Shown here piece after piece: positions 54,447 to 56,542 of a stretch of DNA of 64,000 bases. The DNA is from a bacterium. Its GTDB lineage: Bacteria; UBP4; UBA4092; JAOAEQ01. The stretch is from assembly GCA_026416715.1 (NCBI GenBank), contig JAOAEQ010000011.1:12580-76579 (forward strand). Direction: 5' to 3'. How positions within the stretch are numbered: the first letter of the stretch is position 1; the number at the start of each line of letters is the position of its first letter. The translations under genes were made by a program, and so were the position numbers. The notes under the pieces are model-generated. The model saw only the letters and a program-made list of their open reading frames with translations. It did no database searches and was not told the DNA's origin.

Positions 54447-55703
54447 ATGTTATCAAACCTTATCAATCTTTCTGTACTTGAACGGATGCTGGTGTATTTT
54501 ACGGAAGCGACGTCGTTGAACGTTCGCTTAATAGATATGAATGGCCAATTCATTACCGAGCGGGATAAGTTAGTCAACCAGTGTCAGTTTTGCAGTCTCG
54601 TCCAATCCACGGAATCAGGCATTTCCCATTGCCGAACAAAGTTCAAACAAGCGATTCTGGAAGCGATTCGCTGGGGTGAACCCTATTATTATATCTGCGA
54701 GTTCGGATTAATGGAATGGGTGGTTCCGCTCGTGGTGAATGAAGAACCACTCGGCGCATTATTTTGCGGGCAGGTGCTCATCGATGAAATGGATGATTTA
54801 TCGTATGAACAGATTATCCGCAAAACCACCGCTGCCGGTCTCTCTTTAGAAGCGGTTAACGATTCTTTAACCAGCATTAAAGTGCTGTCTGGTAGAAAGG
54901 TTAAAGCGGCTGCAGAACTCCTATATCTCATTGCAACGCAATTGATTCAACTCGGATATGAATCTTTACAACAGCAGCGGAAAATAACCGAACAACAGAT
55001 GCGGTTAGCGGAAGAAATTGCATTTCAAAAGCAGGGGAAAATGCCGATCGGTTTCCCGAAATCCATAGAAACTGAGCTGATTCAAAAGGTTCGGTTAGGC
55101 GATGTTTCCGGCGCGAAAGAAATATTGAATACAATCCTTGGAACTATTCTCTTACAAGATGTAGCGCGTCCGCAGGTGGTTAAAGCGCGAGTGATTGAAT
55201 TAGTCGGAATGTTAGCTCGGGTAGCGGTTGAAGCAGGAGCGCAGCTCGATGAAATTTTCGGGGCGCAGTTTTCGGAATTAAGCGAGTTAGCTAAAATAGA
55301 AGAATTAGACCAGCTCTGCTACTGGTTAATAAACTTGTTAGACCGGTTTTCAACCCAGATTTATGCCACGAGAAATATCGAAAAAATGAAAGTTGTTTCT
55401 CGCGTTTTGGAATACCTGCGTGAACATTATGCTGAACGGGTTACGCTCGAAGAAGTGGCGAAACATGTTCATCGGAATCCGTATTATATCAGCCATTTAA
55501 TAACCGAACAATTACAGACGACATTCAGCGAATACCTCAATCGCATTCGAATTGAAAAGGCAAAACAACTCATGCAAAATCCGGCGTTAAGCTTAGCTGA
55601 AATTGCGCAAACTGTCGGATTCAGCGACCAGAGTTATTTCGGTCGAATTTTTAAACGAGAAGAAGGTATTTCGCCTGCAAAATACCGCAAACAAGTCATT
55701 TAG
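54447..55703 (+). CDS. AraC-family transcriptional regulator with N-terminal PocR sensory domain
   Basis: PocR-like Cys-containing N-domain (QCQFCSLV...HCRTKF...YYYICEFGLMEWVVPL). C-terminal AraC HTH (GFSDQSYFGRIFKREEGISPAKYRK). Confidence 0.8.
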   Translation: MLSNLINLSVLERMLVYFTEATSLNVRLIDMNGQFITERDKLVNQCQFCSLVQSTESGISHCRTKFKQAILEAIRWGEPYYYICEFGLMEWVVPLVVNEEPLGALFCGQVLIDEMDDLSYEQIIRKTTAAGLSLEAVNDSLTSIKVLSGRKVKAAAELLYLIATQLIQLGYESLQQQRKITEQQMRLAEEIAFQKQGKMPIGFPKSIETELIQKVRLGDVSGAKEILNTILGTILLQDVARPQVVKARVIELVGMLARVAVEAGAQLDEIFGAQFSELSELAKIEELDQLCYWLINLLDRFSTQIYATRNIEKMKVVSRVLEYLREHYAERVTLEEVAKHVHRNPYYISHLITEQLQTTFSEYLNRIRIEKAKQLMQNPALSLAEIAQTVGFSDQSYFGRIFKREEGISPAKYRKQVI

Positions 55704-55818
55704 TCCCATCCAGCGCAAGATTATACCAAAATTTCGCAATATTGTTCTAGATATATTGAATTAGTTTAAGTTATATTATTTACAAAAATTTATTCTATCT
55801 CGGAGATGTTCTGGGGAT

Positions 55819-55849
55819 GAATGAGAATTAAACCGTTCAATTCTCATTC
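55819..55849 (+). promoter_or_regulatory. 11-bp inverted repeat (candidate operator) upstream of corrinoid-protein gene
   Basis: GAATGAGAATT-aaaccgttc-AATTCTCATTC, 55 nt upstream of ATG at 55904. Confidence 0.4.
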
Positions 55850-55903
55850 CACTCTACTATCCGACCAAAAATAAATAATTATTATACCTAAAGGAGAACG
55901 ACT

Positions 55904-56542
55904 ATGGTAGATTTACAGGCGATTGCGGATAATTTATTGCAGGGGAAGGCGAGAGAGGTGAAGGGGTTAGTTGAGGCGGCGGTAGCGGAGGGGATTTCGG
56001 TAGGGAAGATATTGAATGAGGGGTTGATAGCTGGGATGAGTGTAGTGGGTACGAAGTTTAAGAACAACGAGATTTATGTGCCGGAGGTATTGATTGCGGC
56101 GCGTGCGATGAAAGCGGGGATGGAGGTATTAAAGCCGTTATTAGGGCAGGCTGGGGTTGAGCCGATTGGGACGGTTGCGATTGGGACGGTGAAGGGTGAT
56201 TTACATGATATTGGGAAGAATTTAGTAGCGATGATGTTAGAGGGAGCGGGGTTTCGGGTCATAGATTTAGGGATTGATGTGGTGCCGGAGAAGTTCATTG
56301 CGGCGGTGCGGGAGCAGCGGGCGCAGATTGTAGCGATGTCCGCGTTATTGACCACGACGATGGTGAATATGAAGACGACGTTAGCGGCGTTAGCGCAGGC
56401 GGGATTGAGTCGTCAGGTGAAAACGATGATTGGCGGAGCGCCGGTGACCCAGCGGTATGCGGATGAAATTGGAGCGGATGGGTATGCGCCGGATGCCGCT
56501 TCCGCAGTGGATAAAGCTAAACAATTACTGGGTATCGCTTAA
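55904..56542 (+). CDS. Corrinoid (cobalamin-binding) protein, methyltransferase-associated MtaC/MtbC/MttC-like
   Basis: B12-binding_2 helical cap plus Rossmann B12-binding domain with DxHxxG motif (GDLHDIGKN). 212 aa. Codon usage is strongly atypical for the window (GAG/AAG/GCG/GGG/CAG/GTG). Confidence 0.8.
   Translation: MVDLQAIADNLLQGKAREVKGLVEAAVAEGISVGKILNEGLIAGMSVVGTKFKNNEIYVPEVLIAARAMKAGMEVLKPLLGQAGVEPIGTVAIGTVKGDLHDIGKNLVAMMLEGAGFRVIDLGIDVVPEKFIAAVREQRAQIVAMSALLTTTMVNMKTTLAALAQAGLSRQVKTMIGGAPVTQRYADEIGADGYAPDAASAVDKAKQLLGIA

Follow-up and report, generated by a model that had tools for sequence, protein, structure and literature searches.

A G-ending, C-poor corrinoid protein gene beside a predicted MtaR-like regulator in the uncultured lineage UBP4

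We analyzed 64,000 nucleotides (nt) of contig JAOAEQ010000011.1 (positions 12,580 to 76,579 of the forward strand; assembly GCA_026416715.1) from a bacterium of the GTDB lineage UBP4, a stretch referred to below as the window. One gene in it, encoding a corrinoid protein of 212 amino acids (aa; 55904-56542, + strand), is written in G-ending, C-poor codons to an extent seen in no other long open reading frame (ORF) of the window. Comparison with related loci gives good support to the view that this gene is native to a poorly sampled lineage and did not arrive of late from a donor with alien codon usage. As the joint best explanation, including the identity of the module that the gene forms with a preceding regulator gene (54447-55703, +), we tentatively favor a gene-specific recoding to NNG codons caused by selection on translation or mRNA, a reading that we hold at somewhat less than an even chance. 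Both ORFs, including the DxHxxG motif of the corrinoid protein, are as the first-pass annotation, made from the sequence alone, had described them. Across 55.5-57.0 kb, the deposited contig, 94,950 nt long, carries proteins MCX7919193-95.

Codon usage of the corrinoid protein gene

Our codon comparison covered the 50 ORFs of the window and, together with those of related loci (designated by L numbers), 1,240 ORFs in total. In the corrinoid protein gene, the fraction of third codon positions occupied by G (G3) is 0.55, with a C3 of 0.05, an A3 of 0.17 and a T3 of 0.22, versus a G3 of 0.12-0.29 in the remaining 49 long ORFs of the window, which bears out the earlier description of its usage as G-ending, C-poor and unlike that of its neighbors. 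The highest-G 300-nt stretch of the 64 kb falls in this gene (G 0.42), and its GC skew reaches +0.65. Among individual codons, the gene uses GAG at 92% (15% in the background), AAG at 71% (14%), GGG at 65% (20%), GCG at 79% (35%), GTG at 48% (16%) and CAG at 89% (39%), and TTA and TTG together make up 95% of its Leu codons as against 48% in the background. When the 1,240 ORFs were ranked, it came first, with an excess G3 of +0.345 (∼6 standard deviations, sd) and a G3-C3 skew of 0.83, and it lies 5 sd away from the distribution of its own gene family. A family-wide bias was rejected, as the corrinoid genes of 93 loci average an excess of +0.016 in G3 and 0.000 in C3.

The G-ending, C-avoiding portion of the gene comprises codons 1-196 (55904-56491, +), where 105 of 148 G-capable codons end in G, compared with 2 of 13 (Fisher p=1.2e-4) after a change point that follows codon 196. 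Beyond it, the final 16 codons and the stop codon (56492-56542, +) have ordinary AT-rich usage. The reversion to host-like usage that had been noted over the last ∼20 codons is thus real, with the last 16 codons as its proper extent.

Skewed genes were also seen at other loci. At L060 (6522-16399, Dehalococcoidia), several genes including the corrinoid gene have a G3 of 0.49-0.55 compared with 0.32 for the locus, with normal C3, making this a regional feature unlike that of the window. Moderate G3>C3 skews of 0.45-0.56 occur in corrinoid-adjacent genes of other phyla at L080 (11100-13180), L036 (12430-13395) and L142 (9924-10394).

Origin of the gene

The extreme atypical usage had been taken as a sign of very recent horizontal acquisition, for which a donor genome with G-ending usage would be needed. 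The genomic context does not bear this out. The L001 ortholog (84% aa identity) adjoins the same convergent gene as the corrinoid gene of the window, purC (SAICAR synthetase; 56657-57571, − strand; Pfam 4e-77), and the window and L001 are equally diverged in the two genes, with identities of 83.9% aa and 77.4% nt in the corrinoid gene and 81.6% aa and 77.9% nt in purC. The adjacent PocR gene has ordinary usage (G3 0.24, C3 0.20). Within the corrinoid gene itself, pyrimidine-ending, Leu and Ile codon choices are still AT-rich and host-like (TTA, ATT, GAT and AAT); CTG, ATC and GAC would be expected from a GC-rich donor.

The homologue searches that the first-pass annotation had proposed for finding a donor lineage gave none with matching usage. 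The nearest relatives with DNA (L001 and L162-L166), obtained from protein-guided look-ups, are 81-84% identical to the corrinoid protein. Their genomes share the AT-rich background of the window (G3 ∼0.20), their own copies have a G3 of 0.25-0.36, and copies at 74-76% identity have a G3 of 0.22-0.24. The G-rich, C-poor usage was absent from every relative copy and every locus background measured, and neither the 8,000 scored homologues nor the loci with a measured gene copy included a G-rich relative. No homologue above 84% identity was present among 5.8 billion proteins searched, the contig index had no exact entry for the gene product, and genome and metagenome scans gave no closer relatives above 74% and 71% identity, respectively. 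Pfam scans of the window found no integrase, transposase or reverse transcriptase, and the 64 kb contain no second copy or template repeat of the corrinoid gene; a diversity-generating retroelement or other reverse-transcriptase template was rejected on the same grounds. Taken with the synteny and the equal divergence from L001, these results leave recent acquisition as highly improbable.

Because these genomes carry the corrinoid family in several copies, orthology has to be assigned with care. At L002, from the metagenome-assembled genome (MAG) SBS.BIN.55, a second tandem corrinoid gene with ordinary codons begins 340 nt past the first and runs into the contig end (10980-11215). Its 78 visible codons are 82% identical in aa to the window protein, closer than the first copy (74%).

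A junction at codon 196

The 3′ edge of the G-rich portion coincides with a wider change in the contig. The GC content drops from ∼0.41 to the left of the corrinoid gene to ∼0.35 to its right, and the GC content at third positions (GC3) from ∼0.38 (1-56000) to 0.23-0.30 (56600-64000). The tetranucleotide signature of the 56.6-64 kb portion correlates with that of the left chunks at r 0.75, compared with 0.89 ± 0.03 among the left chunks themselves. Synteny is in conflict across the same point, with the left side (PocR and promoter) arranged as in L002 and a further contig, P0008, and the right side (purC) as in L001. For P0008, as for P0009, the comparison used gene lists without DNA. The proteins of L162 and L163 group with L001; these two loci share its PocR-less promoter and keep a gene for FTHFS (formate-tetrahydrofolate ligase) downstream.

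The right block (56600-64000) starts with purC and also carries the core genes proB, obg, rpmA and rplU. Both PNPase, from the left block, and Obg, from the right, have the same neighbor profile, in which a few relatives at 74-82% identity are followed by a fall to ∼60-67%, so that the two blocks belong to one lineage or to sister lineages. A cross-phylum chimera is excluded by these matching profiles, and codon 196 may instead be a join between related genomes. We infer that it marks an old crossover inside a conserved gene, or an assembly join, and not the end of a selective force. The recombination patch that had been suggested as the alternative to acquisition is supported at its 3′ edge only, by GC content, tetranucleotides and the synteny break. 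No mosaic recombination blocks with relatives are evident in third-position identity, and the junction leaves the G-richness itself unexplained: under either reading of the junction, the G-rich part belongs with the left block, whose other genes are ordinary.

Anatomy of the bias

Relative to the orthologs, the largest third-position flux in the corrinoid gene is from A to G, affecting 27 of 50 ancestral third-position A, and C has been lost both to G and to T. At 4-fold degenerate sites G reaches 0.72 and C 0.06, compared with 0.41-0.47 and 0.25-0.27 in L001, L163 and L164. There are 24 AA dinucleotides versus 64 in the orthologs and 5 AAA versus 23.5, and CT and ATC are almost gone. The frequency of G3 depends on the second base of the codon, being 83% when this is A, C or G and 39% when it is T (p=4e-7), and the TTA:TTG ratio equals that of the background. 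The untranslated flanks are unskewed, with G 0.14 and C 0.19 in the leader and G 0.20 and C 0.16 in the 3′ untranslated region (UTR).

Replacements specific to the window protein also run from A to G at codon positions 1 and 2 (net A −7, G +7) and include several K to R changes, with none in five relatives. These replacements are present in the deposited protein itself, which makes the drive a feature of the natural sequence. The changes relative to L001 are overwhelmingly synonymous (79 versus 35 non-synonymous), and a single hypermutation burst was rejected for this reason.

Several simpler accounts were also rejected. Codons 1-196 contain 23 runs of at least three G and the only G-quadruplex-like motifs of the window with loops of at most 12 nt, and the mean G4Hunter score of the gene, 0.65, is 5.8 sd above the window mean. 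Maximization of G-quadruplexes or the building of G-runs was rejected despite these dense runs, as G3 is depleted ahead of a following G (60% versus 80%). An overlapping gene was rejected because there is no long ORF in the other + frames, and a 93-aa antisense ORF was set aside as a by-product of G3, its stops needing T- or C-ending codons before TAN or CAN. Adaptation to high expression was rejected because GAA and AAA overwhelmingly prevail in the genes for L21, PPDK and PNPase, so that NNG codons are not 'optimal' here; the corrinoid gene therefore uses the rarest codons of its host, not the preferred ones.

Causes of the recoding

The junction invites two explanations in which the gene was assembled from more than one source. 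By allelic replacement, codons 1-196, possibly with the leader and the PocR gene, would have come through homologous recombination from an unsampled relative with a G-rich copy, leaving the last 16 codons and purC as the recipient's own DNA. This is unlikely, if well worth keeping in view. It accounts for the sharp change point after codon 196, for the step in GC content and tetranucleotides at the same place and for a left junction like that of L002 and P0008 next to a right one like that of L001, and it fits the branching of the window protein outside the L001/L162-L165 clade, with seven residues shared exclusively with the first L002 copy and none with L001. However, it merely moves the puzzle, since the PocR gene and the 56-kb left block are ordinary, so that in the donor, too, the G-richness would be confined to this gene; the homologues and loci surveyed include no G-rich relative, and third-position identity to relatives is without mosaic blocks. 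Alternatively, assembly could have fused two related genomes into a chimeric contig, with the join in a conserved gene of several copies and the odd gene stemming from a mis-traversed tangle. The composition and tetranucleotide break lies exactly at the corrinoid gene, all three proteins are singletons on one contig, and in relatives more than one paralog is seen in a sample or contig (L001 and L164 come from one sample, and L002 has its tandem pair). Yet mixing ordinary alleles cannot yield a G3 of 0.55 with an intact conserved frame or the A to G replacements of the deposited protein, both blocks share one neighbor profile, and two joins inside a span of 600 nt would, given ∼77% nt identity, depend on long exact matches, of which none were seen. 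An artefact could account for the junction and not for the synonymous G enrichment, and we regard it as quite improbable.

A mutational origin, which we rate as rather unlikely, would place the cause in heavy transcription or R-loops that expose the non-template strand, promoting A to G changes and the loss of C in a process that reinforces itself as the G skew grows. The GC skew of up to +0.65, the predominance of the A to G flux together with the loss of C, the A to G bias of the amino acid changes and the concentration of quadruplex-like motifs and G4Hunter signal are all as expected from such a process. Against it, the transcribed leader and 3′ UTR have no G excess, and the bias depends on the second base of the codon and ends 16 codons before the stop. 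In addition, transversions from C to G and T to G are as frequent as C to T changes, T3 does not rise, G3 is rarer before G, and we found no bacterial precedent of such size.

We infer selection as the most likely cause of the recoding, and favor it because the bias is confined to the ORF and dependent on the codon's own second base, and because the movement runs against both the mutational bias of the host and the usage of its highly expressed genes. The G-ending, C-avoiding, A-run-poor spelling would have arisen in this lineage's copy, confined to the translated region, through selection on synonymous and near-neutral sites acting via translation or mRNA. A switch from the major NNA codons of the host (GAA, AAA, CAA and GGA) to its rarest NNG codons would lead to slow or minor-tRNA-dependent decoding and to a transcript poor in C and A-runs. 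Several points weigh against this explanation as a whole. The A to G drift in amino acids fits a nucleotide-level drive, mutational or compositional, better than pure codon selection, and the selective agent itself is hypothetical. At 90% clustering the lineage forms a singleton, which leaves a single observation of the G-rich allele, and the portion of the genome examined is 64 kb, with other genes of such usage possible elsewhere. Finally, should the junction at codon 196 have arisen in assembly, the adjacency of the corrinoid gene and purC is not real for this genome.

A further step, which we consider doubtful, would make the recoding a regulatory device that ties the translation or survival of the mRNA to a special cellular state, with the hairpin of the leader (see below) belonging to this control as well. 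In the gene-specific enrichment of its coding strand in G and purines, and in its many G runs, the gene recalls the glycine-alanine repeat (GAr) of EBNA1, whose purine-loaded, G-rich mRNA is self-limiting; that case is viral, eukaryotic and repeat-based, whereas here G3 is lower before a following G and the effect on translation is putative. One possible state is the availability of C34 tRNAs or of xm5U34-modified tRNAs, and the modification of xm5U34 tRNAs by MnmEG draws on the folate one-carbon pool. The transcript might also be immune to Rho, a factor that needs RNA rich in C and poor in G. Or it might withstand A-codon-specific RNases that depend on the ribosome, those of the HigB/YafQ type, whose specificity for AAA and A-rich codons has been described (PMC7781912).

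The corrinoid protein and its missing partners

The corrinoid protein has B12-binding_2 (PF02607, 3.7e-21, residues 5-77) and B12-binding (PF02310, 2.7e-28, residues 90-202) domains. The DxHxxG cobalamin lower-ligand motif, read from the translation as D99 L H101 D I G104 (56198-56215, +), lies inside the B12-binding match. The family is strongly conserved, at 55-84% identity across many candidate phyla. The nearest solved structure is 1Y80 (phmmer E 2e-65), followed by the trimethylamine and monomethylamine corrinoid proteins and MetH. Among NCBIfam models the best matches are MtgC, MtbC and pyl_corrinoid, every one under its cut-off; the scores are 193.7 versus a cut-off of 215.3 for TIGR02370, 222.6 versus 370 for MtgC_2, 183.3 versus 350 for MtbC and 126 versus 420 for MtaC. 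We therefore regard the protein as a family relative whose sequence allows no substrate to be assigned, with the well-supported predicted function of an MtaC/MtgC-type B12 methyl-carrier.

It resembles the MtmC/MtbC/MttC/MtgC corrinoid proteins (PDB 1Y80, 7XCN chain M, 3EZX and 4JGI) in its four-helix cap and Rossmann B12-binding domain, its DxHxxG motif and its length of ∼210 aa. Unlike them it is an orphan, and its codon usage is unparalleled among the copies measured in relatives. Pfam scans found no MT1/MT2 genes (URO-D, MttB or MtaB) among the 50 ORFs of the window, in agreement with the first-pass annotation, which had noted no MtxA/MtxB-type partners nearby. Relatives differ from the window in having methyltransferase neighbors: their corrinoid gene is followed by genes for FTHFS, two URO-D/MtaA-type proteins and LarA, or has URO-D genes on its flanks, and FTHFS, the two URO-D and LarA were likewise absent from Pfam scans of the 64 kb. 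The corrinoid gene here is either an operon remnant or has partners elsewhere in the genome.

A predicted MtaR-like regulator

The regulator (418 aa, GenBank MCX7919193.1) combines a PocR sensor domain (2.6e-38, residues 5-171) with an AraC-type helix-turn-helix (HTH) domain (HTH_18/AraC, 7.7e-23, residues 338-416). At L002, the gene immediately before the corrinoid gene is an ortholog with 69% identity, and on the P0008 contig a 418-aa PocR/AraC gene has this position. Across 92 loci, 11 have a PocR-like regulator at most three genes away, which is directly upstream in the nearest PocR-bearing relatives; L016 and L029, among others, also have one upstream and on the same strand. In Eubacterium limosum, the PocR+AraC activator MtaR is encoded by the first gene of the mta operon, and its PocR domain has been suggested to sense methanol or its derivatives (PMC13602510).

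The likeness to MtaR-mtaBCA, of E. limosum and other methylotrophic acetogens (PMC13602510), extends from the N-terminal PocR and C-terminal AraC HTH domains to the position of the regulator directly upstream of the corrinoid gene on the same strand and a candidate repeat just upstream of the −35 element. The differences are that no MtaB or MtaA genes follow here, that relatives carry FTHFS, two URO-D and LarA genes rather than mtaB, and that the corrinoid protein is far under the MtaC equivalog cut-offs. Salmonella PocR, the 1,2-propanediol-responsive cob/pdu activator and founding member of the PocR+AraC architecture, shares the link to B12-dependent metabolism; the regulator here scores 163.6 versus a cut-off of 500 for the PocR equivalog NF047788, however, and the window has no pdu or cob genes. 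An MtaR-like activator of a corrinoid methyltransferase operon is a well-supported prediction for this regulator, whose activation of the downstream promoter may depend on a ligand. The first-pass annotation had proposed that the pair may form a B12-responsive sensor-effector module; we found no support for this, and the MtaR precedent fits better.

Between the two genes, the direct repeat CGCAA-N16-CGCAA (55714-55739, +), with a 21-bp period, has the form of AraC-type boxes and is a candidate binding site for the regulator; the block CGCAAGATTATACyAAAATwTCGCA is common to the window and L002. The repeat is just upstream of a promoter-like site, TAGATA-18-TATATT (55748-55777, +), which we offer only as a suggestion, being a weak consensus match of a kind whose count is not above the shuffled expectation. 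At L001, L162, L163 and L165, which lack PocR, alignment columns ∼52-85 contain a strong common promoter-like block, TTTACT-N17-TA(A/G/C)AAT preceded by TG. This suggests that the PocR-less relatives swapped regulated for constitutive expression.

A conserved leader hairpin

An 11-bp inverted repeat between the two genes had been put forward as a candidate operator. The repeat is real (55819-55849; 11 perfect bp, or 15 nt at 93% when extended) and sits downstream of the promoter-like region, within a conserved 5′-leader stem-loop (55813-55855, +) that has an outer GGRG/CUCY helix and 17 modelled pairs. A hairpin of 17-20 bp occupies the same position at L002 (9857-9913), L001 (7203-7257), L163 (321-375) and L164 (176-231), with arms of differing sequence (GAATGAGAATT versus AACCCGAATTG). 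RNAalifold gave 20 pairs, 10 of them with double changes. In the aligned hairpins, 89% of cells are paired, compared with 78% in shuffles (0/500) and 36-55% in slid controls; seven pairs have compensatory double changes, and G-U pairs are present. A covariance model gave the + strand the better score at each of the five loci. Because the half-sites are not conserved, the pairing covaries, and the hairpin is present at L001, L163 and L164, all without PocR upstream, the repeat is better read as a hairpin of the leader RNA than as an operator, and a role in DNA seems less likely. It might act as a 5′ stabilizer or a protein-binding site, which is a guess; minimum free energy folds do not show sequestration of the Shine-Dalgarno sequence.

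The motif appears to be clade-restricted, as the covariance model matched only its five training loci and, weakly, window positions 38887-38937 (23.7 bits, E 0.055). The latter match, ∼270 nt upstream of an ABC-transporter ATPase gene (39209-40162), is probably due to chance. This ATPase gene happens to have the second-highest G3-C3 skew of the window (0.44). The hairpin has no counterpart in Rfam, whose only matches in the whole window are three tRNAs. Rfam covariance searches also agree with the earlier failure to see a cobalamin riboswitch B12 box by eye, giving no match to RF00174 and its relatives at E≤1 between 53500 and 58500, nor any at gathering score across the window.

The Shine-Dalgarno sequence of the corrinoid gene, AAAGGAG (55890-55896, +), lies 7 nt 5′ of the ATG and is kept in relatives. 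The pair as a whole is well supported as an MtaR-like activator gene, its putative target promoter, a ∼120-nt leader with a predicted 5′ end near 55784 and a long conserved hairpin, a strong Shine-Dalgarno sequence and the corrinoid gene.

Other features of the window

The highest-C stretch (12421-12978; C 0.39 at ∼12500) encodes the proline-rich linker (PPPEPPPAPLPPPPPEP...) of a lipoprotein-like SH3-domain protein and is unrelated to the recoding. A 370-aa ORF (7596-8708), with a GC3 of 0.22 and no Pfam match, lies beside a tRNA-Ser gene (7117-7207); as candidate foreign DNA it is more conventional than the corrinoid gene. At 45676-46383, a 136-aa ORF that overlaps a 112-aa ORF on the opposite strand matches only positions 119-252 of the 272-position GATase_4 profile and may be a truncated or frameshifted gene. 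In the right block, a very AT-rich gap (58028-58303; GC 0.20-0.25) is followed by a short T2SS-F-like ORF of 211 aa with one domain (58304-59372), the end of which overlaps a NirD/AsnC-like regulator gene.

Implications

Atypical codon usage is routinely taken as evidence of horizontal transfer, and here the most atypical of 1,240 genes is a syntenic, equally diverged resident, so the codon-usage shortcut to transfer fails in this case. The deposited MAG contig may, in addition, contain a chimeric or recombinant junction. A module of regulator and carrier is of a known kind; this one varies it by a recoding confined to one gene, an orphan carrier and a new leader hairpin. Little is known of how corrinoid methyltransferase operons are controlled in uncultured phyla, and to this the locus adds a predicted MtaR-like regulator, candidate boxes and a new covarying leader hairpin. 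If the recoding was mutational, it would reflect an unusually strong strand-asymmetric process limited to one gene; if it was selected, it would show one bacterial gene recast in nature in rare G-ending codons, with an mRNA poor in C and A-runs. Should the recoding serve as a regulatory device, the corrinoid gene would provide a natural, gene-specific 'codon-programmed' transcript in an uncultured lineage.

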